64,000 nucleotides of DNA, from the NCBI GenBank assembly GCA_964409235.1, contig CAYPCN010000001.1, positions 79,389 through 143,388 of the forward strand, in the 5' to 3' direction. Below the pieces are notes generated by a model. The model had not been told where the DNA came from and did not search any database. It saw only the letters and a program-made list of their open reading frames with translations. Positions within the stretch are counted from its first letter, which is position 1. Every line of letters starts with the position of its first letter. A program made the translations under genes and the position numbers. Source of the DNA: an uncultured bacterium (lineage in GTDB: Bacteria > Chlamydiota > Chlamydiia > Chlamydiales > FEN-1388). Positions 4,156 to 34,031 of this stretch are shown piece after piece.

Positions 4156-4968
4156 ATGAACCAAGTCTTTACTGTGTTGCTTCTTGTTTTCTCTCTTTCT
4201 TCGTCTTTTGTCCTCGGTAAAAGCCAAGGGCAAGAAGGTGCGCCTCCATATGTCATCGTCCTCTATGGAGCGCCGGGCTCTGGGCGTGGTACCATGGCCA
4301 TTCGACTACGGCATGACTTTGCGTTTCCGACCATTTCTCCAGCCACTCTCCTCACCACCCACGTGCTTGAAGGGACGTCTCTCGGCACCAAGGGAAAGGA
4401 ATATTGCATCCATGGAGGGGAGCTTCCACAAGAGCTACTCCCCGCGATCTTGTGTGATCGCCTGTTACAGCCAGACTGTTCCAAAGGGGCCTTTCTCGAC
4501 GACATGTTTCTGACAGAAGCGCAGATTCGCGACATCCAATGCCAGCTCGAACATCACTTTCGCTTTTTAGCGATTAACATTGATGCCAGTGATGATTTCC
4601 TCATCCAACGTGTGGAGAAGCGAATGATCTGCTCTTCGTGTGGCTATGTCTATGATGACCCTGAGGCAACGCGGCAAACGAAAACGCACTGTGATAACTG
4701 TTCCTCTCCTCTCCACAAGCGCCAAGGTGATACGCCAGAGGTGATCAAAGCGCGCCTGGAAACGTACCGCAAGCAGGTCGCTCCCCTCATGAAGATTTTT
4801 AAGGAACAAGGGGTCTTGGTGCAGGTTCCTGGGAACAGAAAATCGACAGAGCTGTACAAAGACATTCTCCAAACGATTGAGCATATCACGGGGCTTGTCG
4901 CTTCAAAAAAGCATCACAGCGACCTTGCGATCGAACAAGAGTTCCCCAGAATGTACGCTCAAAAGTGA
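4156..4968 (+). CDS. Adenylate-kinase-like protein with a signal-peptide-like N terminus and non-canonical catalytic positions
   Basis: Adk fold with a zinc-LID (CSSCG...CDNCSS, KRQGD, ARLETY). The P-loop reads GAPGSGRGT (Arg where Adk has Lys) and the GFPR-type motif reads DDMFL. The first ~22 aa, MNQVFTVLLLVFSLSSSFVLGK, are hydrophobic. Confidence 0.7.
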   Translation: MNQVFTVLLLVFSLSSSFVLGKSQGQEGAPPYVIVLYGAPGSGRGTMAIRLRHDFAFPTISPATLLTTHVLEGTSLGTKGKEYCIHGGELPQELLPAILCDRLLQPDCSKGAFLDDMFLTEAQIRDIQCQLEHHFRFLAINIDASDDFLIQRVEKRMICSSCGYVYDDPEATRQTKTHCDNCSSPLHKRQGDTPEVIKARLETYRKQVAPLMKIFKEQGVLVQVPGNRKSTELYKDILQTIEHITGLVASKKHHSDLAIEQEFPRMYAQK

Positions 4969-8318: not shown

Positions 8319-9053
8319 GTGTTCGTGCGCTATTCAATTGTCATTCCAGTGCACAACGAGGCAGAAAACCTCCCTCCCTTGCTCCATGAACTCAACGAGG
8401 TCATGGAATCTCTGTCGCACCCTTGGGAGCTTCTTATCGTTGACGATGCGTCCAATGATGCAACATGGCCCATGCTGGTGCAACAGCGTCTTAGCCTCCC
8501 GCAGCTTCGCGGCATACGGCTTTTGCATCGGTCTGGCCAGTCGGCCGCCCTGAGCGCGGGGTTCAAAGAGGCGAGAGGCGACATCGTCATCACCCTCGAT
8601 GGCGACGGGCAGAACGACCCTCATGACATCCCCCTTCTTTTGGCCGCTCTCCCTGATGTAGACTGTGTCACCGGGCGGCGGATGTGCCGAGAAGACCCAT
8701 GGACGAAAAGGGTCGTCTCATCGTGTGCCAATGGTCTTCGCCGATGGCTCCTTGGCGATGCTATTCAAGATACTGGCTGCTCGCTGAAGGTGTTCCGAAG
8801 GCACTGTCTTGCCAATCTTCCACTGTTCAAGGGCATGCATCGATTCCTCCCGTCTCTTCTGATCATCGACGGATATCGCGTCAAAGAGGTCCCCGTCTCT
8901 CACCGGCCTCGCCATACTGGCACGAGCAACTACTCCATTTTCAACAGGGGCTTTTCGACGATCAACGATCTGCTGGCTGTATGGTGGATGAAACGGCGTC
9001 ATATTCACATTGAGATCTCCCAACGCCTTGAGGACCTTTCCCATGACGCCTGA
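8319..9053 (+). CDS. Family 2 glycosyltransferase (polyprenyl-phosphate sugar transferase, ArnC/DPM1-like)
   Basis: YSIVIPVHNEAENL, LLIVDDASNDAT, GQSAAL.AGF and TLDGDGQNDP are GT2 signatures. Confidence 0.8.
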   Translation: MFVRYSIVIPVHNEAENLPPLLHELNEVMESLSHPWELLIVDDASNDATWPMLVQQRLSLPQLRGIRLLHRSGQSAALSAGFKEARGDIVITLDGDGQNDPHDIPLLLAALPDVDCVTGRRMCREDPWTKRVVSSCANGLRRWLLGDAIQDTGCSLKVFRRHCLANLPLFKGMHRFLPSLLIIDGYRVKEVPVSHRPRHTGTSNYSIFNRGFSTINDLLAVWWMKRRHIHIEISQRLEDLSHDA

Positions 9054-10839
9054 GCATGTCGATGCCTTCCGTACCTGGATGTATCCCTTTGGATTTGTGT
9101 CGTCAGTGGCATTCGGCCTCCGCTTTGTCATACAGTGGTGGTACAGCGAACGCGAGGGGCGATCTGTCGTCCCAAAAGCCTTTTGGATTCTCTCATGTGT
9201 TGGCAACGCCCTGCTGGCCATTCACTCTCTGATTCAACTCCATTTCCCTATCTACCTCATGCAATCCCAACAGCTGCTGCTCGCCTGGCGCAATCTCAAT
9301 CTCATGGGCAGTAGGCCGTTGCCATTGAGAAAATTTATCTTTTGGTTATGTGGTTCGGCGTTTGCTGCCGTCCTGCTGTTTGCCTCCCAATGTCTCGTGC
9401 TGCCCGAAGCGTCGTTCGGCTGGTTACGAGCGCCTCGTGTCTCGCATGCCTCGGGTGACGTGAGTTTGTGGGTTCACAGTATAGGCATCCTTGGTGTTGC
9501 TGCTTTTTCAGCTCGCTTCTGGCTGCAGTGGTGGGACGCTGAGACCAAGAGGAGGAGTGTGCTCTCCGAACCGTTTTGGTGGATCAGCCTGGTAGGAACG
9601 GCCATAGCAGGACTGTACTTCTTCCTCTTGTCGGACTGGGTGAACCTCCTTGGCCCGCTCTGCGCTTTCGTCCCCTACTCTCGCAATCTCATCCTCCTCC
9701 GCCGCGAGCGTACTCCGCCGTGCGATGTCGTCATCATCGCGGGGGAGACGAGTGGTGACCTGTTGGGAGAGGCCATTGCCCGGCAGCTGGTGCTTCGCCA
9801 CCCGTCGATCGCCATTGGTGGTGTCGCTGGCCCTGCCATGCGCAAGGCGGGGGTGCGCCTCTGGCTTCGGAGTGAGGCCTTTCATGTCATGGGTATTGTC
9901 GACGTGATCAAAAAAATCCCGTTCTTGCTTTTCGCTGTCCGTACGCTCGTCCGCCGCATCCTCGACGCCCACCCTGCCGTCGTCCTATGCATCGACCAAC
10001 CGTCGATGAGCATTGCCATCGCGAAACGCCTCAAACGGCGTGGCTACCAAGGCAAGATCGTCCAGGTGGTGGCTCCTACGGTCTGGGCCTATCGCCCAGA
10101 GCGGGCTGATACTGTGGCCCGCTATTTTGACCTCATTCTTCCGCTGTTTCGCTTTGAAGTTGACTATTTCCGCGATAAGCTGGAAGCGATATGGGTTGGA
10201 CACCCTGCAGCCTCTCTGTCGCGACATGTGCATGCTGCCGATGAGAAGAAGGCAACGCTGGCGCTCTTTCCAGGGAGTCGTCCCGGCGAAATTCGCCGCA
10301 ACCTACCTCTCCAGTTGCAGGCTGCGGCCATGATCCTCGGGCAGCACCCAGAGATGAGCGTTGCCATTGCTACTTCTGACACCCTGCAGCCGATGGTCGC
10401 TCGTGCTGCCCAAGGTTTTGGCATTCCATGCCAGTGCGTGGATTTCGCTGATCGATACCTGCTCATGGAACGCTCGAAAGCGGCCATTGCGAAATCCGGC
10501 ACCATCACCCTCGAGCTTGCTCTTTTCAATGTCCCCACTGTCTGCTGCTATCAGACCGGGCGCTTCACGCAGTGGTGGGCAAAAACCGTTCTCAAGCTCA
10601 CTCCTCGCTTTTTCGCTCTTCCCAATATCCTTACTGGCCAGCAGGTGGTCCCTGAGTGCATCCTCCCTCCGGTCCGTGCGAGCGACCTCGTCCACGCTCT
10701 GGAGCCATACCTCAAAGGTGATAGGACCATTTCTCCTGATGTCCAGCGCCAGCTTCGCTTTCAAATCGATGCCAGTGCCGAGGTGGGTGTGTTGGTCGTG
10801 CAGGCTGTAGAACGCCTTGCTGATGGGCGGCTCCGATGA
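9043..10839 (+). CDS. lpxB: Lipid-A-disaccharide synthase fused to two N-terminal LAB_N membrane domains
   Basis: Two copies of the RF..QWW.SE...SV.P..FW..S..G motif are followed by an LpxB body (IIAGETSGDLLG, IDQPSMSI, GTITLELALFNVP). The chlamydial LpxB has the same architecture. Confidence 0.85.
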   Translation: MTPEHVDAFRTWMYPFGFVSSVAFGLRFVIQWWYSEREGRSVVPKAFWILSCVGNALLAIHSLIQLHFPIYLMQSQQLLLAWRNLNLMGSRPLPLRKFIFWLCGSAFAAVLLFASQCLVLPEASFGWLRAPRVSHASGDVSLWVHSIGILGVAAFSARFWLQWWDAETKRRSVLSEPFWWISLVGTAIAGLYFFLLSDWVNLLGPLCAFVPYSRNLILLRRERTPPCDVVIIAGETSGDLLGEAIARQLVLRHPSIAIGGVAGPAMRKAGVRLWLRSEAFHVMGIVDVIKKIPFLLFAVRTLVRRILDAHPAVVLCIDQPSMSIAIAKRLKRRGYQGKIVQVVAPTVWAYRPERADTVARYFDLILPLFRFEVDYFRDKLEAIWVGHPAASLSRHVHAADEKKATLALFPGSRPGEIRRNLPLQLQAAAMILGQHPEMSVAIATSDTLQPMVARAAQGFGIPCQCVDFADRYLLMERSKAAIAKSGTITLELALFNVPTVCCYQTGRFTQWWAKTVLKLTPRFFALPNILTGQQVVPECILPPVRASDLVHALEPYLKGDRTISPDVQRQLRFQIDASAEVGVLVVQAVERLADGRLR

Positions 10840-11504
10840 AGCGCCGAAAAATGTGGCACCGCGCCCTTGCGTGGATAGTGACAAAGATCTTAGCGGTCTA
10901 CCTGAAGACGCTTCGCATTCAGTTTTTTGGCAAGGAGCGCGTCCAGCATGAGCTGTCGACGTCGCCAACAGGCTGCGCCTTTCTGCTGTGGCACGATTCC
11001 ATCCTTCTCGCCCCTCTCCTGCAGTGGACAACAGCTTTTCAGCCTTTGCTCCTCCTGATCAGCAATAGCCGAGATGGGGATATCCCCTCAGAGATTGGCA
11101 GACAGTATCGAGGGATCAGCGTCCTTCGCGTCAAACATGATGCGCGTGCTGGCGCGTTGGTCGACAGTTGTAAGGCGCTGCAGATGCACCAGTCTCTGTT
11201 CATCACTCCTGATGGCCCGCGAGGGCCGCGCCACCGCATCAAACCAGGGGCCTTGTACGCCTGTCAAAAATCCCAAGCGCCAATCATTCCCATCGTGTAT
11301 GCAGCCTCTTCGGTGAAGAGGCTGTCGTCGTGGGATCAATTTAAGATTCCGTGGCCTTTCTCTCGGGTTCTCTTTTCCTTCCTCGAGCCGATCTTCTGCC
11401 CAAACGAGGGATCGCTAGAACATGTGCAAGCGGACATCGAACGGAAGATGAAGGCCGAGGAACAGCGGCTGTTGCAGCAGCTTGCTGCCACAAAAGGGTC
11501 GTGA
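10836..11504 (+). CDS. DUF374-family lysophospholipid acyltransferase-like protein
   Basis: LLWHDSILLAP, ISNSRDGD and ITPDGPRGPRH motifs. The start overlaps the lpxB stop (ATGA). Confidence 0.75.
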   Translation: MKRRKMWHRALAWIVTKILAVYLKTLRIQFFGKERVQHELSTSPTGCAFLLWHDSILLAPLLQWTTAFQPLLLLISNSRDGDIPSEIGRQYRGISVLRVKHDARAGALVDSCKALQMHQSLFITPDGPRGPRHRIKPGALYACQKSQAPIIPIVYAASSVKRLSSWDQFKIPWPFSRVLFSFLEPIFCPNEGSLEHVQADIERKMKAEEQRLLQQLAATKGS

Positions 11505-17644: not shown

Positions 17645-17750
17645 ATGTGGAAGAGAGCGTACGGAAGCAGTGGTTTTTTTAACCACAGATTTTTCGTGCC
17701 CTGGAGCACAAAAGGAGTGTACTGTACGAGGCGCGATGCCCCGCGACCTA

Positions 17751-17779
17751 TTGATAAAAAATTCGAATGCTACTATACT
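17751..17779 (+). promoter_or_regulatory. Candidate sigma-70/66-type promoter (TTGATA-N17-TATACT) upstream of the kinase gene
   Basis: A near-consensus -35 and -10 with 17-nt spacing lie in an AT-rich stretch about 45 nt upstream of the ATG at 17823. Confidence 0.35.
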
Positions 17780-17822
17780 TTCCATTTTTCAATCCATTTC
17801 TTTGATTCATTGGATTTTATTT

Positions 17823-19283
17823 ATGGCACATCTTATTGAAAATTATATAACGCCCGATTGTTTGCTTAATATAGGTGCCTGGATCCCTCCTCCACCAGAG
17901 GAGATGGGTATATGGCCGGATCAGATTCTTGACCCTGCTGGGACCTCGGCGGAGGATCTCAGCTCTCAGGCGGCACCAGCGTGTAAGGCGCTTGAACCTC
18001 TGCCTGCTACTGTTCCTCCGAGCATGTTGCTTGCTCCACCGCCCTTCATGGGACCTCCGCCGTTTCACAGAAGGAAGATCAGGCTTTCCCAAGCACCACC
18101 GCCTTTGTATGTCGGCGTGCCAGAGATGTTTGCCGCAGCTCCGCCTGTACAATCTATGTATATGACGTCCCAGGATATTGAACGCATGATGTCGAGCATT
18201 CCGTTCGCTTCCTTGACGAGAGAGATGCCTCGGAACAAGGCGTTGGCTGTAGAACGGTTTGTGAAGGACAAGTTGCCAATGGTTCTTCAGGGGATGTCGA
18301 AAGAAGAGACAAAAGCTGTCCATACGTCGAAAAGTCGAGTTCTTGGCGAGTGTCGAATTCGTTGCGACGGTAGATATAGTGACAAAGGCTTTGAGGTGTA
18401 CATCCGGTATGGCGTTATGCGAGGGGGTGTGAAAAAGATTAGCCAAAAGATGTACCTCATCGGTCCTCAGCAAGGTCGGATATGTGCCTATGCCAAGCCA
18501 TTTCAAGATGGTGGAGTCCGCCGGAACAAGGAGAACGACAAGATGTACTGCATGCGAAGCCAGGAATTGGTCCAAGAGGTGTGTATAGGGCAATTGTTTC
18601 GCAATTCGTCTCATATCATCCCCATTGAAATGGTACCGAGAAGAAAGAGACCTACACAGATCAAGGCTATTCAGATGCCATGGTGTAATGGCGGCGATCT
18701 TGCTATGTGTCTTAAAATGAACAGCCCTCCGCTCTCGCACCACGATCGCCTGCAGATCATCAGGGAAATTGCACTCGGAATACGCGAGATCCATTCGAAG
18801 AATATGTGCCATATGGACTTGAAGCCTGGCAATGTGTTGATTCAAAGAACTGCGGAAGGAATCAGCGCTTTTATCTGCGATCTTGGCCGCGTGTGCTTCA
18901 AGGACGTTCGTATGCCGACTCCAATTTCGACGAGGGGGTATACGGCTCCAGAGCAGATTGTGAAAGATGCAGAGACCAAGTTTTCCATGGACATATGGAA
19001 TATTGGCCTGATTGCGTTAGAAATACTGCATGGTCAGGAGAGCAACTTGTACGTCTCTGAGGAGGTAGTGTTGCAGGACAAAGACTTCAACCATCCTCCG
19101 TGTTTTCCCACTCTCGTCGCCTTGTGGTATGGTATCCATACCAAGATTATGCGAAAGCTTGGGAATTCTCCTTGTGATCAACTGATTAAAAGGATGATCA
19201 GTTTTGCCCCTCAGGAACGGCCCACAGCTGATGAAGTGATGACCGCTGTGGAAAAGCTTCTCATAGTCGATTTGTTCAAGTGA
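17823..19283 (+). CDS. Eukaryote-like Ser/Thr protein kinase with a proline-rich N-terminal region
   Basis: ORF 17670-19283; I prefer the start at 17823 (MAHLIENY). The C-terminal half has HMDLKPGNVL, CDLG, GYTAPE and a subdomain XI-like QERPTADEV. The N-terminal part contains PPPPEE, PPPFMGPPPF and APPPLY. Confidence 0.8.
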   Translation: MAHLIENYITPDCLLNIGAWIPPPPEEMGIWPDQILDPAGTSAEDLSSQAAPACKALEPLPATVPPSMLLAPPPFMGPPPFHRRKIRLSQAPPPLYVGVPEMFAAAPPVQSMYMTSQDIERMMSSIPFASLTREMPRNKALAVERFVKDKLPMVLQGMSKEETKAVHTSKSRVLGECRIRCDGRYSDKGFEVYIRYGVMRGGVKKISQKMYLIGPQQGRICAYAKPFQDGGVRRNKENDKMYCMRSQELVQEVCIGQLFRNSSHIIPIEMVPRRKRPTQIKAIQMPWCNGGDLAMCLKMNSPPLSHHDRLQIIREIALGIREIHSKNMCHMDLKPGNVLIQRTAEGISAFICDLGRVCFKDVRMPTPISTRGYTAPEQIVKDAETKFSMDIWNIGLIALEILHGQESNLYVSEEVVLQDKDFNHPPCFPTLVALWYGIHTKIMRKLGNSPCDQLIKRMISFAPQERPTADEVMTAVEKLLIVDLFK

Positions 19284-25577: not shown

Positions 25578-26623
25578 CGTGCCACCCTCATCCCAACACT
25601 CTCAACAAGGCGGGATCCTGCTGCTGCCATGAGCGCCAGGGCGATCAACCAAAATCCCATTTGGGCTCTATTTTCGATGGGTGGAGGGGTAGGACGCGCT
25701 TCCACTGACTGCGCAATCTGTTTCATAACTTGGCTGAGGGGCTGACCAATGGAAATTTCAAAGTACCTGCCTCCCGTTGCTTCGATAGCATCGATGAGGC
25801 GATCCCGCTCTTCGGGAGAGAGCTGCTGGTAGCTATGCTTGTCAACATTGACGTAGTGGACCTGTACATTGTGCTCTCGGGCGTAGTCCAGAGCCTGGTA
25901 CGTTCTCATCGATCGGAATGGGTCCGCCCTGTCGGCAGGATGAGGCTCTTCGATTCCATCAGTGATGAGGAGAATAGTACTACCGATAGGAACGGTACCT
26001 TTTTGTGCGCTGGGATTGACGCCGGCAAACGCACGGCACGCTGTAATGAGGGCGACGGATTTCATGATGGCATAGCCTATCGCCGTGCCATTGAGTCGCT
26101 CTTCGGTTTCCGGAACGATCTTCTGCACCTGCTCGTGAAAGAACTCCCGATCTCTTGAGAGGGGGACATCGATGTTCGCGGCACGGGCGAAGGTGATGAG
26201 TCCGAGGAAGTCGTTCTCTCCCCCTTCTTGATCCATCAGTGCACGGCATTGTTCTATGCTTGCCGTTACCATTTGCACCTTGGATTGTCTCGGATTAGTC
26301 GGCATGGGCTCTGCCATAGAGCCGGAGCGATCCACGACAAAGAAGAATGCTCGGGAATCTGCAGGATGGGGCTGGGCATACGTTGGGGAGAGAAAATACG
26401 ATTCCAAAGGACCGCTGCCGACAAGGCAGTGGACAAAAGTCCACGAGAGGAAGCCGAGGGCTGCGATATGGAGGACAAGCGACAGAATGCGAATGGCAGA
26501 CGGTAGCGGCGAGACCGGCAGCCACCGCGGTACAGGTAGCTGAAGAGAGGGCAACGGCTGTTTTCGGTTCAGCACAATGACACATGCCGCTGTCACTGCT
26601 GCGACGACCATCCACCACATCAC
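25574..26623 (-). CDS. batA: BatA-like von Willebrand factor A membrane protein
   Basis: 349 aa. N-terminal TMs, FFFVVDRSGSM MIDAS motif, ILLITDG, and a C-terminal TM. Confidence 0.75.
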   Translation of the reverse strand: MMWWMVVAAVTAACVIVLNRKQPLPSLQLPVPRWLPVSPLPSAIRILSLVLHIAALGFLSWTFVHCLVGSGPLESYFLSPTYAQPHPADSRAFFFVVDRSGSMAEPMPTNPRQSKVQMVTASIEQCRALMDQEGGENDFLGLITFARAANIDVPLSRDREFFHEQVQKIVPETEERLNGTAIGYAIMKSVALITACRAFAGVNPSAQKGTVPIGSTILLITDGIEEPHPADRADPFRSMRTYQALDYAREHNVQVHYVNVDKHSYQQLSPEERDRLIDAIEATGGRYFEISIGQPLSQVMKQIAQSVEARPTPPPIENRAQMGFWLIALALMAAAGSRLVESVGMRVAR

Positions 26624-26794
26624 GATAGCGCTCCATTCTCACGAAGTCCTCTCTTATCTTTTCTTGTCCTTTATTGCAAACGCAAAAAAAAGAACACAGT
26701 TGTAGAAAAAAACGCAACGAAAGACAATTTACATGCGCGCGATCGTTTTAATTTATTGCGGACTAATAATTTGAATATTTGTAACAAAGACAAA

Positions 26795-27523
26795 ATGGCG
26801 GATTCCCACACAATTCTTCCATCATGCACTTTTGAGAATGAACGACAAGAGAAGGGTCATCTCATCTGCATGGTCGGGCTGCCTTGCTCTGGCAAGTCGT
26901 CGGTTACTCGCGAGCTGAGTGCAGTGGCAGAGGTACGTACGTTGTGCGAACCTGAGGAAGAGGCCTGGGCAGAATGCGTGACGATGCGGGAGTATTCCGG
27001 CCGGTTTAGTGCTCATATGTGGTTCCGCTCCATCCGCACCTGCCAATTGTATCAGGCTAGTGCCTTAGCTCGAAAAGGGCATACCGTTATCGTCGACTCA
27101 TACCTTGACAAGCTGTTATATTTCTGCCTGGGCCGACAGGGTATGAACTGGCTCCTTCCTGCCAATGACCCATATTTTGAGGTGGTGCGCCAGACGGCCC
27201 GCATTGACTTAGAGTCACTACCGCTCGCGGACTCCATCATTTTTTTTGACTCGGACCTGCAAACGTGGCATAAACTGTTGCGGACTCGATCTCGGAAGGT
27301 GGAAAACGGCCTGTTCACTGATGACGTTTTCCATATGCAAGAGTACCTAAGATCCGGCGTAGAGTTCTTGCGCAGCAACTATGGAGTGCGAGTGATGACG
27401 CTCAAAACCCAGTTCAGCCATCCAAGAGAAGCTGCCAAAAGAATTCTCCATGCTCTTCGGAAAGGAGCTCTTAGAGACTCTTCTCCACGTTCTTCTGAAA
27501 GTTCCGTGCTTATATATCCGTGA
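26795..27523 (+). CDS. Deoxynucleoside-kinase-like P-loop kinase, paralogue 1
   Basis: ORF 26756-27523; ATG at 26795. GLPCSGKSS P-loop, CEPEEEAW, VIVDSY..DKL (DRS/DRY-like), and an LLRTRSRKVE lid-like Arg cluster. Confidence 0.65.
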   Translation: MADSHTILPSCTFENERQEKGHLICMVGLPCSGKSSVTRELSAVAEVRTLCEPEEEAWAECVTMREYSGRFSAHMWFRSIRTCQLYQASALARKGHTVIVDSYLDKLLYFCLGRQGMNWLLPANDPYFEVVRQTARIDLESLPLADSIIFFDSDLQTWHKLLRTRSRKVENGLFTDDVFHMQEYLRSGVEFLRSNYGVRVMTLKTQFSHPREAAKRILHALRKGALRDSSPRSSESSVLIYP

Positions 27524-27531
27524 GGTGATGC

Positions 27532-28245
27532 ATGAAAATGCTGCTGTGGTCCTGTGTGATCTGTTGTGTGACTTCATGTCTGTTTGGCGGCCAGTCTTCT
27601 ACGGGCCTCTTTATTACAGCTGTTGGCTTGCCGGGGTCCGGCAAGTCGTCGGTGATGCGAGAGCTGGCTGGGCTGCTCGACGCTTCTTGTTTTTGCGAGC
27701 CCGAGGAGCGAGAATGGAAGGACGCTGCCGTGCTTCGACATCTGTCGGGCTATTATACGATGATCAGCTGGTTCCGGTCTGTGCGCGTTCCTCAACTGTA
27801 CCGCGCCAGCGAGCTGCGTGCCTCAGGAGAGATTGCTATCACAGATTCGTACTACGATAAGCTGTTGGCGCACTATATCGGGAAGCCGGGCATGGAATGG
27901 CTGATCAGCCCGTCGGATCCATATTTTGATGTAGCGGTTGCAATGGCCAAGAAAGACTGGGAGCAGTTGCCAACAGCCGATGTCATTATCTTCTTTGAGA
28001 TCTCCCACGACTTATGGAGAGATTTCCTCACGAAGCGCAATCGTTTCCTCGACTGCGACCAAAAGTTTCTTGAGAGTTATTCCACGCAAGAGCTCTTTCT
28101 CAGCGCATGCAAGAAGCTTGCTGAGGAACAGCGCATTACGCTCATCACCATACAGCAGGAGTGGTCCTCACCCAGGTCTGTCGCAGAAAAGGTCAGAAAT
28201 ATTCTATATGCCAAAGGCCTCCTTCGACCACCCGCTACGCGGTAA
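27532..28245 (+). CDS. Deoxynucleoside-kinase-like P-loop kinase, paralogue 2, with a hydrophobic N-terminal extension
   Basis: TGAGGTGA RBS. MKMLLWSCVICCVTSCLFGG is followed by GLPGSGKSS, CEPEEREW, ITDSYYDKL and FLTKRNRFLD. It is collinear with paralogue 1 over its whole length. Confidence 0.65.
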   Translation: MKMLLWSCVICCVTSCLFGGQSSTGLFITAVGLPGSGKSSVMRELAGLLDASCFCEPEEREWKDAAVLRHLSGYYTMISWFRSVRVPQLYRASELRASGEIAITDSYYDKLLAHYIGKPGMEWLISPSDPYFDVAVAMAKKDWEQLPTADVIIFFEISHDLWRDFLTKRNRFLDCDQKFLESYSTQELFLSACKKLAEEQRITLITIQQEWSSPRSVAEKVRNILYAKGLLRPPATR

Positions 28246-28270
28246 CAGCCATTGAAACCAGGGGTTGAGG

Positions 28271-29821
28271 ATGCAGATTTTTGATGCGTATGCCATTCTG
28301 AGGAAAGGGGGAGACCTTCGTCCTGACCTCGTTGAGGAGCTCATTCAAGGGCATCAGCAGATTTCTGCTCCTCAATGGGCATCGCTCGTAGCTTTTTTAG
28401 GGAGTAAGAAGGCCACAGAGTCAGAACAAGCATTGCTTGCATGGATCTTTCAACAGAAGCCATGGTGTCGAGATCTCATCCGAGTTGATCGCGGAGAGAT
28501 GATTGGCGATGAACAGGAACGTCGTTTCCTTCGTGCACTCAACAGGCGTGAAGAGCTGGGTGAAGACTCTATTCGCTGGTGGATTTCTGGCGTCACTTCG
28601 AACGCTCTCCCTCCAGAGCACATCGCCTTCTTCCTTGGCAAGATCACCTGTCTTGGCATGCATGCTCATGATATTCGTCGTATGATACGGGCGATGGTAG
28701 ATTTTGGTCATGTGTATGACTACCGAAATCTCAGGGAGCTCGAATTCCGAAAGATCATCCGCCGGTATCCTAGCGGGGCGCTGTCGGAAAAGGGGGCGCT
28801 CGTCCTTCCGGCGCTCATCGCCGCCATCAGAGAATTCTTCCCAGCTGCCACGTCCTTTCTTGTGGCCCGTTCTCTCAGCTTCACGGGGGGGACGTGGGAC
28901 AAGCTTGCAAGCATCCCTGGCTTTCAATTTCCTGCTCCTGGTGCGGCCTCCATCCATGCTATGCAGCGGTGCGGCGTGGCCATGACAGTCACCCATCACG
29001 ATGCCAATCCTGCTGACAGAATCCTGTACCAGATGCGCAGTCAAACGGGAACGGTGGAATGTGAGGCGCTCATCATCGCCAGCATTGTCAGCAAGCAACT
29101 GACCTTCCCTCCTGACGTCGTGCTCCTTGACATGCGGTACGGTCCCGGTGCTTTTTTCCCTGATAGTACGACAGCATCGCACACTGGTGCTACGATGGCG
29201 CAGATCCTTCGCGATGAAGGCGTTGCGGCCTCGTACACTCTCACCGAGGCAGCGGTGCCCACTGGCTCAGCGATCGGCAATGCTCTTGAAATCATCGAAG
29301 CGCTGGTTCTTCTCAAAGGAGTGCCACAGGCAGCCTGGAATCTGAGTGGGCTGGACAGACAGCGAGCTATTGTACTCCGGCTGTTCAGTATCTTACTGCA
29401 CGAAACCTTCCCTCATATTTCGGAGGAGGAGTTCTTCCGCCTCGGCGAAGAGATGCTCTATAACGGCCGGGCCCTCCGAAGTTTTCTCGACATCCTGTCG
29501 TGCCACGGCGTCCAGCCCTCTGTTCTCGATGCATTGCTCGTCGATCCGTGGGGCGTTATGCTTCCAGGGCTTTGCCCTGTTCCTATCTATTCCCCGCACT
29601 CTGGTGTCCTCTCGTCGATTGATCAAAGGGCTCTCGGAAATCTGGTGAATTTTTCTCTTTCACGGATGGAGGATGGTGGTATGGATAGGAGAGCTGGCAT
29701 CAAGCTCAACAAGCTACCGAAGGAGGCCGTTCATTGTGATGAGCCTCTTGCTTGGGTCTTTACGACCACTTCTCTAGAATCATATCGCGATGATGTTCTT
29801 TCATGTTTCGAGGTGCAATGA
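28271..29821 (+). CDS. Thymidine/pyrimidine-nucleoside-phosphorylase-family protein, divergent, with an ~85-aa N-terminal extension
   Basis: SFTGGTWDKLASIPGF matches the conserved TGGT.DKLESIPGF loop. The first phosphate loop reads RRYPSGALSEKG where DeoA has DKHSTGGVGDK. The glycosyl-transferase helical-bundle pattern appears twice at the N terminus. Confidence 0.65.
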   Translation: MQIFDAYAILRKGGDLRPDLVEELIQGHQQISAPQWASLVAFLGSKKATESEQALLAWIFQQKPWCRDLIRVDRGEMIGDEQERRFLRALNRREELGEDSIRWWISGVTSNALPPEHIAFFLGKITCLGMHAHDIRRMIRAMVDFGHVYDYRNLRELEFRKIIRRYPSGALSEKGALVLPALIAAIREFFPAATSFLVARSLSFTGGTWDKLASIPGFQFPAPGAASIHAMQRCGVAMTVTHHDANPADRILYQMRSQTGTVECEALIIASIVSKQLTFPPDVVLLDMRYGPGAFFPDSTTASHTGATMAQILRDEGVAASYTLTEAAVPTGSAIGNALEIIEALVLLKGVPQAAWNLSGLDRQRAIVLRLFSILLHETFPHISEEEFFRLGEEMLYNGRALRSFLDILSCHGVQPSVLDALLVDPWGVMLPGLCPVPIYSPHSGVLSSIDQRALGNLVNFSLSRMEDGGMDRRAGIKLNKLPKEAVHCDEPLAWVFTTTSLESYRDDVLSCFEVQ

Positions 29822-30252
29822 GATATGTTCTTCTTCTCTCCCTGACGCTCTATACGTGTGCTGGCCTTCGTGCTGCGGACGGCTTTGCGATGAAGGATGG
29901 TGGCAGTCGTGACGCCTATGGTTCTGGAGCTGTTCGAGAGAGTCGCGCCAAGAAAGGTCGCTTTGATCTACTCTCCCCGATAGCCCTTCGGAGATTGGCG
30001 ATTGTCTGCGAAAAAGGGGCGCTGAAATACCAAGAGCGGAATTGGGAGAAGGGGATGCCCATCTCTCGCCTTCTCGATAGTGCACTGCGGCATATCAACC
30101 AGTATGTAGAGGGGTATCGAGACGAAGACCATCTTGCCCATGCGATGTGGAATCTCATGGCTGCTCTTCACTTCGACGAACTCAGGCCAGATTTGTGCGA
30201 TATGCACGGTTATGGAGCGGTGACGTCCGCTCCTGTATCGCCAGAAAAATAG
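29818..30252 (+). CDS. Small secreted-type protein with a phage-like dATP/dGTP diphosphohydrolase N-terminal-type domain
   Basis: The ATG overlaps the upstream TGA (ATGA). MRYVLLLSLTLYTCAGLRA is signal-like. RFDLLSP.AL..LA.V...GA.KY..RNWEKGMP.SRLLDSALRH......G..DEDHLAHA.WNL matches my recollection of the family. Confidence 0.55.
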   Translation: MRYVLLLSLTLYTCAGLRAADGFAMKDGGSRDAYGSGAVRESRAKKGRFDLLSPIALRRLAIVCEKGALKYQERNWEKGMPISRLLDSALRHINQYVEGYRDEDHLAHAMWNLMAALHFDELRPDLCDMHGYGAVTSAPVSPEK

Positions 30253-30350
30253 CGCTTTCCACGTGAGCCTCGGTTGGAAGAGGGGAACTTTTCGTTGACT
30301 GACTTTGAGAAATCGTGCGATAACATCGTCACACAGAAAGAAGGATATGC

Positions 30351-31067
30351 ATGGATCCACATCACAAGTCGATAGAATCCTCCTTGCATTGGCATGAGCG
30401 TCTGCTTCATTGGTCGGGATGGGAGCAAATAGTCGAATACCGCTGCCAGCTAATTGGCCTGAGCGTTGCCATCATTGCCCTCGTATCGCTCTTTGGGTGG
30501 TGGGTTGCCCGCCGGCAGTCCTCGTCCGTTGCCGATACGCTCCGTGCTGAGATGATTGTCCATCGCCTGAGACATCCAGAAGCCTCTTCCGAATCGCCCC
30601 CTATATCCGTGAGCCGTGATCTCCAACGCCTTGAGGACCTGGCCCCTTTGGGAACGCCATTAGGAGCTCGATTTTCTGGTGTCATCGCGCAAGAAGAGAT
30701 CGTACAAGGGGGACAACCCATTTCCCAGGAGCGGTTTTCAGTCGCTTCTGAGGCGCTCTTGCAGGCGCAGCTCCCTCTTCACAGTGCGTGTGTACAGGCG
30801 ACGATGTTGTCTGCTTCCGGCAACATCGACGAGGCGATAGGCGTGCTCAACACGATCATTGAAAAGACGGGAGAGGAGTTCCCCAACCTTCATGGCTATG
30901 CATTGTTGGAAAAGATTTCCTCGCTGCGGGCGCAACAAAAATCCAATCGCACTGTTATCGCTGAGTTGGAGCGCTTTCTTGCTTCGCATCCAGAGACGGC
31001 GGCAGCCTTTGACCGCATTTTTTCCGGGAAGACTCGAGGGCTCCTCGATTTTCTCGCGATTGATTAA
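30351..31067 (+). CDS. Hypothetical single-pass membrane protein with a helical C-terminal region
   Basis: 238-aa ORF with a TM segment LIGLSVAIIALVSLFGWWV. No family recognised. Confidence 0.45.
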   Translation: MDPHHKSIESSLHWHERLLHWSGWEQIVEYRCQLIGLSVAIIALVSLFGWWVARRQSSSVADTLRAEMIVHRLRHPEASSESPPISVSRDLQRLEDLAPLGTPLGARFSGVIAQEEIVQGGQPISQERFSVASEALLQAQLPLHSACVQATMLSASGNIDEAIGVLNTIIEKTGEEFPNLHGYALLEKISSLRAQQKSNRTVIAELERFLASHPETAAAFDRIFSGKTRGLLDFLAID

Positions 31068-31481
31068 GAAATTGTGAAGATTCCCGAAAGAATAGCTTGC
31101 TCGGATTTTCAGAAACGTGATACATCCCTTGATAGGCGGCGTATGTTCTCCGTTGTCGGCAATGGCGCGGGCTGAACATAAGGCCTGCTCAGCACACTAC
31201 AGGGGGTGCTGAGCGTTGATCGGAAGACTACATTCCCTTCATCCCCAAGATCCTTGTCGACTACTAGAGCTTCTCACAGCAGGTAAAGGAGGTGAGTTCA
31301 AAGAGAGAAGAAAAATCCTGAAGGCATGTTCGTTGTTCCTCGTTGATGCGGGGAGAAGAGAACTGGCTACGAAGACCCTGGTGGATCGTGATATTTGGTA
31401 TGAACAGAAGATGAATCGGAACCATAAGCGTACAAGGCTCTCTACGAGTTTTGAACGTCTTACCTACCCGATAGGTATACG

Positions 31482-31993: not shown

Positions 31994-33313
31994 TCAGTCT
32001 TTGGTTGGGGTCATAGTGCATGAGATCGCGGATAAGAAGGCTGAGAGCGTCTCCATTCTTGGCCGACTCTCTTTGCAGTTGGTCATGGAGTGCTTTATAT
32101 TCTTTTCTATAGGTCGAAATAAAAGATTGCCGACCTCGCTTTGAATGTCGTCTGTAAACCACTGAGTAAGTTCCTGTAATTTTTGAGCTGCTTTTTGTGA
32201 GGGTAATGTTGCTGCTAGTTCCTGCTGGAGCCGAATGTCTTTGGATCGACTTGTGAGTCTGACATATGCTTGCCCGCCAAGCCGCTGAACACGTTTTGCT
32301 CGCTTATATGTTCCCGTGCCAATGGTATCCTTGGCGAAATCTGCCACCAAAAGACCGCTATCGTCTGCGTAAATTTTTAATCCTTTGATCGTGTGATTTT
32401 GCTGTATTGCTCCATTAGGCAGGCGGATGATGAGCGATTCCCAGCCGGTCTGTCCTGCCGTGAAAATTTGTTTTGCAATATCCTCGGTGATGCCAAGATC
32501 ATCTTGAAGACTTTTGAGAACCTTGTGCTCGAGTGTCTCAACTTTTGATTCAAAGGCTTGGATTTTCTGTGGATTGATTGAATCAGGAGGCAAAAGAGAT
32601 TGTCCTTCTAATTTCAACTGTTCATACTCTTGTTTGCTGTCTAGCGGGAGCGTACCAGAAAGCCCTCTGAGACGTTCTAGAGCTGATGAGTATTTGTCGA
32701 GCAGTACAGACATTTCAAACTGTGCGATTTTTTCTTCAAAGGCGGGTACTTCTTCTTGAATTGTCTGGACTTCTTTGTCTTTGAGCGCCCCGTCAAGGAT
32801 TTTCCCGGTCTCTACGAGCCGATCGAAGTCTAGACGTTTTGTCGAGGGACAAGAAGCAGCAAGAGAGTGTAGGCGAGTGTTCAGGGTCTCCAGGCGTTTG
32901 GAAAGAGCGTCTTTCTCAATAGAAGGTTGTTCAGGAGGTGAAAGAGACTGGCTGCCAGAAATGTTTCTAAGTATTCTCTCAAACGTTGTGGTTATATTTT
33001 GAATTTCTCGATCCCTATCCCCCCTTCCTGCTCCTTCTTCTTCAATGTGTTGAATAGCAATGTCTTTCAGTATCCGTAGATTGGTTTGGGCCGCCTCTCG
33101 CTCCTTGGCTGAAAGTGAGCCGATGTCGCCTAATCGTTCCTCGATGGTTTTGAATGTAGACAAGAAGTATTCTCTTGAATAGGTAGGGCGATCATATCGT
33201 TTTTGAACCCACTCAATTTTTCTTCCAATTCCTTGGCCTATAACGTTTGGGATATATATCGTGCGCGTTATGGATTTTGGTACCCCGTGCGCTTCGTCTG
33301 GTCTTGTTGTCAT
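31994..33313 (-). CDS. Coiled-coil protein ending in a truncated kinase-like segment (possible pseudogene)
   Basis: ORF 31994-33406. The Met at 33313 is preceded by an AAGGTGA RBS. A long coiled-coil is followed by IGTGTYKRAKRV (G-loop-like). A kinase subdomain XI-like LIRDLMHYDPNQRLTCADA is encoded in a different frame (ORF 31935-32162). No HRD, DFG or APE lies between them. Confidence 0.45.
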   Translation of the reverse strand: MTTRPDEAHGVPKSITRTIYIPNVIGQGIGRKIEWVQKRYDRPTYSREYFLSTFKTIEERLGDIGSLSAKEREAAQTNLRILKDIAIQHIEEEGAGRGDRDREIQNITTTFERILRNISGSQSLSPPEQPSIEKDALSKRLETLNTRLHSLAASCPSTKRLDFDRLVETGKILDGALKDKEVQTIQEEVPAFEEKIAQFEMSVLLDKYSSALERLRGLSGTLPLDSKQEYEQLKLEGQSLLPPDSINPQKIQAFESKVETLEHKVLKSLQDDLGITEDIAKQIFTAGQTGWESLIIRLPNGAIQQNHTIKGLKIYADDSGLLVADFAKDTIGTGTYKRAKRVQRLGGQAYVRLTSRSKDIRLQQELAATLPSQKAAQKLQELTQWFTDDIQSEVGNLLFRPIEKNIKHSMTNCKESRPRMETLSAFLSAISCTMTPTKD

Positions 33314-33589
33314 CGTCACCTTTGAAGGTGCATGTATTAATGATAGCGGCTGTTGGTCAAAGATACTTCTTTCGTAAAGAAAAAAAGTAATAAATGCCAC
33401 TTGCATTGATGGAAAGGGTCACGCGGCTGTAGAACTCTGGCTTCGAGAAGTAGTATATGAGGGGAGTGAATGACAACTGGGAAGGGCTTGCCAAGGGGCA
33501 CGCAGAGCTCATGCGAAGCGTGGTGTGACTGCGAGCAGCATGAGCGGATCGGAGAGCGTATGCCAAGATTCGCAAGGCGGGAGTCAGGA

Positions 33590-33638
33590 CGCAAAAAGAT
33601 CCTACTCTATCCTCCAAAAAGCACATCGCAAATGGTTC
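33590..33638 (+). mobile_element. MITE-like element, right-end fragment F
   Basis: AAAAAGATCCTACTCTATCCTCCAAAAAG-CACATCGCAAATGGTTC matches the right arm and terminus of copy H. Confidence 0.65.
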
Positions 33639-33713
33639 AAAGAGCTCCGCACCTTGTTTTTTTTCCTATGCCAAGGCTACCATATGTTCATGGTTGTCAA
33701 AAGAGCTAGGGAT

Positions 33714-33977
33714 CCTTACCTACGAGGAGCTCGGTTGATCACGTACGAGGTACGAGCAGTGGATGGTGCTGCCATTGGTACAACAAGAGGAATGTTCGTT
33801 GCAAAATGTGTGCTCGTGCGTAGTCCAGAATGGTGTCAGCCGGCCTGGTACAGCCTGTAATGAGTTCGTGGATATACCGTGCATCGAGATCTCAATGTTG
33901 CTGCAAACATTTTGGCCCTCGGACTAGATGGCCTGGGCATTCGCCCTAGACGCCCCTGTCTTCAGGTAGGGGAGTAG
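33714..33977 (+). pseudogene. C-terminal fragment of an IS200/IS605-type TnpB (OrfB) gene with in-frame stops
   Basis: A single frame reads ...LITYEVRAVDGAAIGTTRGMFVAKC..., then TAA TGA at 33858-33863, then VRGYTVHRDLNVAANILALGLDG. HRDLNVAANIL is the RuvC-III DRDxNAAxNI signature. The N-terminal ~300 aa are absent. Confidence 0.55.
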
Positions 33978-34031
33978 TCACGGTACTCTCTTTTGGAAAA
34001 GAAGTGTTGCATACCTAAGATTGTGGAAACT

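Follow-up and report, generated by a model that had tools for sequence, protein, structure and literature searches.

A chlamydial cassette of two kinases, an altered NP-II-fold enzyme and a DUF5664 protein as a candidate version of a rare bacterial deoxynucleotide-processing module

The locus described here raises the question of why a member of the Chlamydiales should carry, in one compact row, two kinases, a strongly altered relative of the thymidine phosphorylases and a protein of a type known from phages, two of the four with signal-like peptides. The four genes occupy positions 26795-30252 of a 64,000-nucleotide stretch of DNA (referred to throughout as the window) from an uncultured bacterium of the FEN-1388 lineage (assembly GCA_964409235.1, contig CAYPCN010000001.1, positions 79,389 to 143,388), and lie tightly packed on the plus strand. 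They comprise g1 (26795..27523, with an alternative TTG start at 26756), which encodes a kinase without a signal peptide; g2 (27532..28245), which encodes a second kinase with a signal-like peptide at about residues 1-21 (27532..27594); g3 (28271..29821, the longest open reading frame (ORF) opening at TTG 28265), which encodes an enzyme of the NP-II fold; and g4 (29818..30252), which encodes a DUF5664 (PF18909) protein with a signal-like peptide at about residues 1-19 (29818..29874). Gaps of 8 nt (g1/g2) and 19-25 nt (g2/g3) and an ATGA stop/start overlap (g3/g4) join the genes, and a Shine-Dalgarno-like GAGGTG stands 4-5 nt 5' of the ATG codons of g2 and g4. An earlier note, written from the letters of this DNA alone, had described the same arrangement (four same-strand genes, gaps of 8 nt and about 20 nt, an ATGA overlap); the ORF list agrees with it, and every motif quoted there for g1 to g4 is present in the translations. 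Our analysis suggests that the cassette would be a lineage-specific version of a rare bacterial deoxynucleotide-processing module.

Comparison between genomes identified the part of the cassette that is conserved. The contigs of the closest g4 relatives, together with a genome scan using the g3 alignment, yielded 18 distinct genomes, and in 17 of them a kinase of the g1/g2 family lies directly upstream of a g3-like gene, the sole genome without an adjacent kinase being a metagenome-assembled genome (MAG) labelled candidate division TM6. A MutT/MTH1/NudJ-like NUDIX gene stands between kinase and g3 in eight of the 18, and a DUF5664 gene stands beside the g3-like gene in four, either without a NUDIX gene (the window and locus L001) or together with one (L004 and L006). 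DUF5664 thus joins or replaces NUDIX in Chlamydiia, in the Dependentiae-labelled (TM6) genome and in one further lineage. Other recurring neighbours are an HD phosphohydrolase of the SAMHD1-like, dGTPase-type or YfbR-like kind (5-6 of 18 genomes, with HD dNTPase-like neighbours in L013, L014, L016 and L021), a thymidylate kinase (TMK; five genomes, L015, L017, L019, L021 and L022) and, in L018 only, a guanylate-kinase-like protein. Since the g3-like gene is found beside a kinase in 17 of 18 genomes, the core is taken to be the pair of kinase and altered NP-II enzyme, with NUDIX or DUF5664 filling a pyrophosphatase slot. The earlier note had treated the four genes as a set; the set does co-occur elsewhere, but the conserved unit is the kinase and g3 pair, which is widespread among free-living bacteria and usually has NUDIX in the position of g4. 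Recurrence in other genomes argues against chance juxtaposition.

The pairing is also seen within single polypeptides. Four representatives (P0437, P0439, P0451 and P0464) are kinase-g3 fusions, one of which, P0437, is 37% identical to g3 over the whole g3 length and has the motifs RRYPTGGLSEK and TGGTWDK. HD-kinase fusions were found in L020, P0344 and four more representatives, and a kinase fused to a dCMP/cytidine deaminase in P0330 (380 aa). The two core families are of similarly small size, with 87 clusters for the kinase and about 79 for g3 among 5.8 billion proteins, and their carriers span about ten phyla, among them Chlamydiia, Acidobacteriota, Gamma-, Alpha- and Deltaproteobacteria, Bacillota, Bacteroidota and Verrucomicrobiota; named carriers include Paenibacillaceae, Oscillospiraceae, Chitinophagaceae, Saprospiraceae, Lacunisphaera and the cultured Mucilaginibacter segetis SD-g (L019). 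The nearest genome match to g3 (64% identity) is in L009, a MAG labelled Chlamydiia bacterium with the same order of Bat, cassette and TopA. The order of Bat/VWA genes, kinases and g3 is kept in four Chlamydiia-type contigs (the window, L001, L009 and L028), and three of these contigs (the window, L001 and L009) have TopA downstream. The kinase/NP-II-like cluster was not described in any paper found by literature searches, and the author of the earlier note likewise knew of no described pathway with this combination. The kinase and g3 pairing, the NUDIX/DUF5664 slot and the export signals are undescribed in the literature found; the components come from known superfamilies.

The two kinases share 39% identity over 224 aa, and both carry a GLPxSGKS P-loop, a CEPEExxW motif, a (V/T)DSYxDKL motif and an Arg-rich lid. 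They had been called deoxynucleoside kinase (dNK)-like on the basis of such motifs. Profile and fold searches agree with this description, but the Pfam dNK family does not accept the proteins: the PF01712 gathering threshold is 27 bits, whereas the score is 15.3 for g1 (E = 0.017) and 12.1 for g2 (E = 0.16), so that by that model's own threshold neither is a member. Their remaining Pfam matches (AAA_33 and AAA_28) are likewise sub-threshold; NCBIfam gave no match for g1 and only generic ABC/TMK P-loop noise for g2. Most members of the family lack a precomputed Pfam domain, and the names given by JGI vary between thymidylate, deoxyadenosine/deoxycytidine and nicotinamide-riboside kinase. A full HMMER scan of 1.84 billion proteins returned 133 kinase representatives at E <= 1e-30. 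In an alignment of 44 kinase sequences, G32, G37, K38, E56-P57-E58-E59, W62, R169 and R171 are invariant or nearly so. The dNK and TMK structures feature a (D/E)-R-(S/Y/H) motif after strand 3; in the same 44 sequences the corresponding segment reads D105-S106-Y107-Y108-D109-K110, with Ser in place of the Arg.

A profile built from these 44 sequences and compared with the Protein Data Bank (PDB) matched the deoxyguanosine kinase (dGK) 2jas first (4e-7), followed by the dNK 8puu (1e-5) and then TMKs, with the kinase motifs aligned to the FKEPvEEN and KKRGR segments of 2jas. The AlphaFold2 (AF2) model of g2 has a mean confidence (pLDDT) of 92.8, with low values for residues 1-20 (block means 55 and 58), and a Foldseek search with this model returned the deoxyadenosine kinase (dAK) 8puu at E = 7e-10, 2jas at a TM-score (TMt) of 0.75 and a root-mean-square deviation of 3.7, and many TMKs; viral dTMP kinases and dNKs also match. 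The kinases share with the known dNKs (PF01712; M. mycoides dAK/dGK 2jas and 2jaq, Giardia dAK 8puu) and the TMKs the P-loop, the EPxxxW motif with its putative catalytic Glu, the Arg-rich LID and the fold. They differ from the dNKs in their identity of only 15-18%, in the DSY.DK segment that replaces the (D/E)R(S/Y) Arg, in having one signal-peptide paralogue, and in their fusions to HD, NP-II-like and dCMP-deaminase domains. By profiles and models, g1 and g2 belong to a small, unnamed P-loop family within the dNK/TMK fold class and are not AAA or zeta-toxin proteins, as the earlier assignment required. In a rough neighbor-joining tree the g1-type copies (window, L001, L009, L028 and L004) form one clade and the chlamydial g2-type copies another, which suggests that the split into exported and cytoplasmic paralogues is old. 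By this comparison g1 would be a divergent paralogue, predicted to be cytoplasmic, and g2 the ancestral-type copy. Phosphorylation of deoxynucleosides by g1 and g2 is what their relatives suggest. Kinase copy number varies within the chlamydial clade, as the Chlamydiia-type locus L028 (4643..8280) has three tandem kinases (210, 197 and 237 aa) followed by a g3-like gene, with no DUF5664. Two further loci, L024 (6001..9378) and L026 (6001..9276), hold distant family members with signal peptides (P0196 and P0184) directly upstream of a Ribonuc_red_lgC-like gene and DUF402, which are fused into one 827-aa protein in one of the two; no g3-like gene is adjacent, and the kinase family thus seems to have another nucleotide context, distinct from that of the cassette.

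The product of g3 had been described as a divergent nucleoside-phosphorylase-like protein with a replaced phosphate loop and about 85 additional residues that form a helical module at the N terminus, and in each of these respects the description was borne out. The motifs RRYPSGALSEK and FTGGTWDKLASIPGF are present. Pfam places Glycos_trans_3N above its cut-off and Glycos_transf_3 just short of it (25.2 vs 27), and the NCBIfam models of pyrimidine-nucleoside phosphorylase (PyNP) and thymidine phosphorylase (TP) match at about 1e-56 yet score far under their cut-offs (TIGR02644, 192 against 409; NF004490, 190.6 against 269; TIGR02643, 143 against 571). The AMP phosphorylase model TIGR03327 reaches 66.6 bits against a cut-off of 535, in an alignment that begins only at g3 residue 79-90. 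In a PDB profile search, residues 86-501 matched PyNP 1brw at 1e-56 and TP 1azy at 5e-53. The AF2 model (pLDDT 95.1) aligned in Foldseek with PyNP and human TP at TM-scores of 0.84-0.86, with AMP phosphorylase at 0.83 and with TrpD at about 0.65-0.70. Among 5.8 billion proteins, the g3 subfamily consists of clusters of 520-540 aa at E <= 1e-53, and canonical PyNP/TP proteins of 434 aa start at 1e-38. NCBI labels the members of the subfamily 'hypothetical protein'.

A column-by-column comparison of 69 g3-subfamily sequences with 41 canonical PyNP/TP sequences located the differences. The canonical phosphate loop D-K-H-S-T-G-G-V-G-D-K (K-H-S in 41/41, T in 36/41, G-G in 41/41) corresponds in the g3 subfamily to a near-invariant R-R-Y-P-T-G-A-L-S-E-K (R-Y in 69/69 and P in 68/69, then T-G-A), preceded by an Arg-rich insertion of four residues that the canonical enzymes lack. 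The Ser of the SGRG motif, found in 40 of the 41 canonical sequences, is Val in 65 of the 69; the variable position of TGGT-x-DK is Leu in the canonical set and Trp in the g3 subfamily; and the residue that follows the base-binding Arg is Asp in the former and Ser in the latter. In contrast, the base-site residues Y255, R258, S273, S276 and K277 are invariant in both sets, with R171, S186 and K190 as the pyrimidine-binding counterparts in the E. coli enzyme. g3 therefore shares with the known NP-II enzymes (E. coli DeoA, 1azy; G. stearothermophilus PyNP, 1brw) the full-length fold of helical, alpha/beta and C-terminal domains, the TGGT.DK loop, these base-binding residues and the GNALE..EA motif. 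It differs from them in the remodelled phosphate loop, the Ser-to-Val change of SGRG, the Trp of TGGTWDK, the Arg-rich insertion and the N-terminal module, as well as in its distance from the NCBIfam equivalog cut-offs and its pairing with a dNK-like kinase. By these measures g3 belongs to a sharply separated subfamily of the pyrimidine-nucleoside/thymidine phosphorylases. A degenerate pseudo-enzyme was considered and rejected, as the substituted loop is invariant across the 69 sequences; g3 is probably a functional enzyme that still binds a pyrimidine and has an altered co-substrate chemistry.

The archaeal AMP phosphorylase of the pentose bisphosphate pathway (4ga4-4ga6) offers a second point of comparison. 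It too is an NP-II enzyme with an extra N-terminal domain that acts downstream of nucleoside kinases, and its sequence relation to g3 is detectable (E = 2e-16, alongside the fold similarity given above). However, g3 is closer to PyNP/TP, the N-terminal modules of the two proteins do not align, and no ribose-1,5-bisphosphate isomerase or RuBisCO gene occurs in any g3 locus, where the context consists instead of deoxynucleotide enzymes (HD dNTPase, TMK and DUF5664).

The assignment of g4 is the most direct of the four. It carries the motifs RFDLLSP...RNWEKGMP...DEDHLAHAMWNL and matches PF18909 (dGTP_diPhyd_N / DUF5664) with 84.9 bits against a cut-off of 27 (E = 4e-24, profile positions 3-91 of 99), in keeping with the earlier description of a diphosphohydrolase-like domain; the PHROG family of dATP/dGTP pyrophosphohydrolases matches at 3e-22. 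All of its 586 homologues contain PF18909, with identities of up to 50% to phage proteins and 60-67% to metagenomic stand-alone proteins. NCBIfam gave no match for g4, a PDB sequence search with the mature protein found no solved relative, and a look-up of its own contig led to a 4.9-kb Logan contig that supplied no Pfam context for the window. By profile, g4 is clearly a PF18909 member of the predicted deoxynucleoside triphosphate (dNTP) pyrophosphohydrolase type. A full-text literature search on DUF5664/PF18909 found only phage work. The stand-alone DUF5664 protein of Arthrobacter phage Wayne hydrolyses dATP, dUTP and dGTP to the deoxynucleoside monophosphate (dNMP) and pyrophosphate (PPi), and is described as paired with a dNMP base-transferase (PMC12884076, 2026). 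Membership of PF18909 is thus what g4 has in common with the DUF5664/MazZ-type dATP/dGTP pyrophosphohydrolases of Z-genome and Arthrobacter phages. Unlike them, it is chromosomal in a Chlamydiia bacterium, overlaps the stop codon of an NP-II-like gene, begins with a signal-like peptide and has no PurZ, DatZ or DmtZ partner.

The hydrophobic N termini of g2 and g4, and their absence from g1, had been remarked upon in the earlier note; both proved to be true parts of their ORFs and to be conserved as a feature in orthologues. A crude hydropathy heuristic scored g2 as positive (2.63) and g4 as borderline (1.97) and flagged 10 of the 50 ORFs of the window. A Sec-type signal peptide consists of a positive n-region, an uncharged hydrophobic h-region at least about ten residues long and, ahead of the cleavage site, small residues. 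In orthologues this layout recurs (for example VYA|KD, FAL|DE, TYA|DA, ...STYA|DA and ...VISG|DE), and the peptides keep their character but not their sequence in orthologues that are 44-79% identical to g2 and 61-76% identical to g4. Among the 120 best g4-family members, the hydrophobic extension is confined to the six closest relatives (P0001-P0006), and the four loci of this set that were fetched (P0001, P0002, P0004 and P0006) all adjoin a g3-like gene; the remaining members begin at the K/HDSG..RE motif, some after a non-hydrophobic extension. All members of the g2 clade (P0121-P0130 and P0145) have non-conserved hydrophobic N termini, and signal-like peptides are also seen in a distant kinase clade (P0182, P0184, P0185, P0191-P0194, P0196 and P0198), while the g1 clade and nearly all kinases of free-living bacteria start a few residues before the P-loop. 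That the N termini are artefacts of ORF extension was rejected: g2 has no ATG, GTG or TTG between V13 and the P-loop, Shine-Dalgarno-like sequences lie upstream, and the feature recurs in divergent orthologues. The candidate lipobox Cys of g2 orthologues is Gly in the g2 of the window. Export of g2 and g4 is a prediction, one that this comparison between genomes supports well. Another of the ten flagged ORFs of the window, at 4156..4968 (+), encodes an adenylate kinase (Adk; Pfam ADK, 79 bits) with a zinc-lid CxxC...CxxC and a signal-like peptide (MNQVFTVLLLVFSLSSSFVLGKSQ / MNQVFTVLLLVFSLSSSFVLGKSQGQEG); its ATG follows a GAGGG, and no other start codon lies close to the P-loop. This would be the third exported nucleotide-phosphotransfer enzyme of the genome. 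No description of a periplasmic Adk or of exported chlamydial dNK-like kinases was found in the literature.

The function that we consider most likely, although we would place it just short of an even chance, is salvage or turnover of deoxynucleotides carried out partly outside the cytoplasm. The third slot of the module would hold a (d)NTP pyrophosphohydrolase giving (d)NMP + PPi, usually a NUDIX protein and here g4, which would cut dNTPs to dNMPs. g1 and g2 would phosphorylate deoxynucleosides to dNMPs, and g3 would form or cleave the glycosidic bond in a product or substrate of the kinase, either a pyrimidine deoxynucleoside or the corresponding deoxynucleotide. NUDIX or DUF5664 on the one hand, and HD phosphohydrolase plus kinase on the other, would both be routes from dNTP to dNMP. 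The kinase-g3 fusions suggest that the two enzymes act on consecutive intermediates, and the retained base ligands together with the frequent TMK neighbour suggest that g3 handles a pyrimidine; the net effect would be salvage or turnover of thymidine- or uridine-type deoxynucleotides. In the periplasm or the inclusion, exported g2 and g4 would take dNTPs and deoxynucleosides of the host as substrates and converge on dNMP; the cytoplasm would be the site of g1 and g3. An exported Adk would fit such an extracytoplasmic, dNMP-generating compartment. As for the direction of g3, it may run towards salvage (base + sugar phosphate to nucleoside to dNMP) or, like the archaeal route through kinase and AMP phosphorylase, towards breakdown (deoxynucleoside to dNMP, then to base + sugar bisphosphate).

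Two known schemes resemble this proposal in part. Classical thymine/thymidine salvage (DeoA + Tdk + Tmk) follows the same logic of a phosphorylase, a nucleoside kinase and, in some loci, a thymidylate kinase, although the enzymes of the cassette are non-orthologous and divergent. In periplasmic scavenging by UshA, CpdB and AphA, nucleotides are processed outside the cytoplasm before uptake; in contrast to that system, a predicted exported kinase and pyrophosphatase would give dNMPs and not nucleosides. To our knowledge no exported pair of kinase and pyrophosphatase has been described, and none was found in the literature searched. In its most extended form, the proposal would be that Chlamydia- and Dependentiae-like intracellular bacteria harvest deoxynucleotides outside the cytoplasm, turning host dNTPs and deoxynucleosides into dNMPs ahead of uptake by means of a kinase and a phage-derived DUF5664 protein that are both Sec-exported, with exported Adk balancing the adenylates, that cytoplasmic g3 carries out a new NP-II reaction (base cleavage or exchange on a pyrimidine deoxynucleotide in an enzyme without the canonical phosphate site), and that the kinase/g3 pair is an unrecognised module across bacteria. 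In this entirety we regard it as a doubtful proposition.

Several points weigh against salvage or turnover as formulated here. The substrates of the kinases and of g3 are guesses from their relatives. The missing (D/E)R(S/Y) Arg and the failed dNK threshold mean that the kinases could act on dNMPs, sugars or other compounds. In g3, K-to-R, H-to-Y, S-to-P and S-to-V changes remove most of the canonical phosphate ligands and make ordinary phosphorolysis doubtful, so that hydrolysis or base exchange appears equally possible, with phosphate, water and another base as the candidate nucleophiles. g4 is absent from two related Chlamydiia genomes (L009 and L028), where no remnant is left, which indicates that it is dispensable and not essential to the module. 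The hydrophobic segments of g2 and g4 could be membrane anchors, and a periplasmic kinase requires ATP in that compartment, which is plausible in a bacterium that imports host ATP. Finally, in several free-living carriers the cluster lies beside mobile or conflict genes (RteC, IS66, SMEK and ABC-3C), a setting that fits defence better than housekeeping salvage.

On a rival view, which we consider unlikely, the module would serve anti-phage defence or conflict by the destruction of deoxynucleotide pools, and the chlamydial copy would be its domesticated descendant. HD and NUDIX/DUF5664 enzymes would dephosphorylate dNTPs, the NP-II-like enzyme would cleave the product and render the depletion irreversible, and the kinase domain would bind nucleotides or have a regulatory part, as it does in defence proteins of the P-loop-deaminase type. 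The patchy, rare distribution across phyla is consistent with such a role, as are the neighbouring RteC and DUF4209 in L019, IS66 and SMEK in L014 and an ABC-3C component directly upstream in L013, the association with dGTPase-type and SAMHD1-like HD enzymes, and the HD-kinase fusions. The kinase-deaminase fusion P0330 shares the architecture of dCTP-depleting P-loop-deaminase defence proteins such as AvcD and the dCTP deaminases, and the NUDIX protein of L004 resembles the PADLOC candidate PDC-S07 (8e-16). However, PADLOC-DB 2.0 contains no model that matches g3 or g4, and for the kinase only weak P-loop matches (PDC-M51B at 5e-5 and mad8 at 0.0045); a full-text literature search found nothing linking thymidine phosphorylase to anti-phage defence; and the chlamydial cassette is syntenic, has the GC content of its genome and lies among housekeeping genes. 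Moreover, exported components are ill-suited to the depletion of a cytoplasmic pool, thymidylate kinase neighbours suggest synthesis and not depletion, and other loci have ordinary neighbours (peptidase, UbiD and 5'-nucleotidase). Alternatively, g2 and g4 would be secreted effectors, passing by Sec and then type II secretion into the inclusion lumen or host cytosol and rewiring the host dNTP pool. g4 would convert dNTP to dNMP and g2 would trap deoxynucleosides, slowing host replication or feeding the bacterium, with g1 and g3 as partners on the bacterial side. Signal-like peptides are indeed found only in host-associated-looking lineages (Chlamydiia, the TM6-labelled MAG and the 37%-GC L004) and not in free-living carriers, the same lineages have two kinase copies that arose by duplication, only one of them predicted to be exported, and the plentiful ATP of the host cytosol would meet the need of the kinase. 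Nothing, however, supports transport past the inner membrane, and no eukaryote-like targeting motif is present; the signal-peptide Adk of the same genome fits a periplasmic phosphotransfer set at least as well, and the distant signal-peptide kinases that lie beside ribonucleotide-reductase-like genes in other bacteria point to the bacterium's own metabolism. We consider host-directed secretion improbable.

Pool editing or base exchange, by which a non-canonical pyrimidine deoxynucleotide would be produced or eliminated, appears to us a long shot. The pyrophosphatase would yield dNMP, whose base the altered NP-II enzyme would exchange or take off, and the kinases would re-phosphorylate the product, in parallel with phage DutZ or DUF5664 + DmtZ. 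Thymidylate kinase and dNK-like kinases are typical of the modified-base pathways of T4 and Z-genome phages. g3 has lost phosphate ligands, kept base ligands and gained Arg near the loop (the extra arginines are R154, R162, R163, R166 and R167), a combination that would suit a phosphorylated sugar and a non-phosphate nucleophile, and DUF5664 with a dNMP base-transferase is a documented phage pathway (PMC12884076). Against this, no hydroxymethylase, PurZ-like protein, glycosyltransferase or dedicated polymerase occurs in any locus, the loci are chromosomal, and among 50,697 phage records a search found canonical PyNP at about 26% identity but no member of the g3 subfamily. Phage origin, which the earlier note had entertained for the whole cassette, holds for the affinities of g4 only and was rejected for the remainder: the g3 subfamily is not in the phage records, the kinases are mostly bacterial, and the GC content is that of the genome, so that composition gives no hint of a recent transfer. 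Our preferred reading remains salvage or turnover, in part outside the cytoplasm.

The results define a cluster, present in many phyla, that pairs a dNK-like kinase with an NP-II-like enzyme and has gene-fusion (Rosetta-stone) support; neither core family is annotated. The phosphate site of g3, remodelled in an invariant way, suggests that a well-studied enzyme family, to which a human drug-metabolising enzyme belongs, includes a new reaction or substrate, and g4 would be a case of a phage pool-editing enzyme (DUF5664) taken into a cellular operon instead of NUDIX. The supply of DNA precursors in environmental Chlamydiae and Dependentiae is known only in part, and an exported kinase together with a dNTP pyrophosphatase provides a concrete hypothesis for it. 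Should the cluster instead serve defence, the systems known to destroy dNTPs with a single enzyme would be joined by one that uses several.

The genomic setting of the cassette is a chromosomal, housekeeping-type neighbourhood. On its 5' side, g1 is separated from the divergent VWA/BatD genes on the minus strand by an AT-rich spacer (26624..26794) of 171 nt with a GC content of 0.345, in comparison with 0.532 for the cassette and 0.528 for the whole window; the divergence from the Bat operon across such a spacer had been correctly noted before. The spacer presumably contains the promoter. A consensus sigma-70 scan found no site within it, and promoter and terminator scans of 26400-31200 returned sites that were not above the shuffle expectation. 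With these scans uninformative, it is the gene spacing that suggests co-transcription of g1 to g4. An exact-sequence look-up of g3 from its TTG start found no match because the gene caller had chosen the ATG at 28271. The wider surroundings include LpxB with a fused LAB_N (9010..10839, +), a penicillin-binding protein of 1120 aa (37600..40962, -), a Ser/Thr protein kinase (17670..19283, +), a sigma-70 factor and tRNA synthetases. An LAB_N-fused LpxB, a very long penicillin-binding protein and a Ser/Thr protein kinase are typical of Chlamydiae, and their presence fits the taxonomic assignment of the window.

Some neighbours of the cluster differ between lineages. In the Bacteroidota loci L017, L019 and L022 (about 9350..11260), kinase and g3 are followed by a thymidylate kinase and then by a protein of 242-252 aa, which in L019 has a hydrophobic N-terminal region and a weak DUF5919 match; L017 and L019 add a 152-153 aa protein of no assigned function. 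L019 also has RteC, a conjugative-transposon regulator, upstream of the cluster and DUF4209 downstream. In L013 (3179..4939), a deltaproteobacterial MAG, the ABC-3C component (DUF2326 + CTD10) directly precedes a row of HD, kinase, NUDIX and g3 genes. On the 3' side of the chlamydial cassette, a gene at 30351..31067 (+) encodes a hypothetical membrane protein of 238 aa (family C7) with a hydrophobic N-terminal segment, a weak TPR-like region and only sub-threshold Pfam matches (MHYT and FxsA). Its synteny is limited to Chlamydiia: the gene comes after the cassette in three loci (the window, L001 and L009), and no non-chlamydial locus has it; it is probably not part of the module. Further downstream, the stretch of lowest GC content in the window (32001..34000, 0.469) holds an ORF of 470 aa (31994..33406, -) that is rich in charged residues and has no Pfam match, and this could be a lineage-specific effector-type gene.

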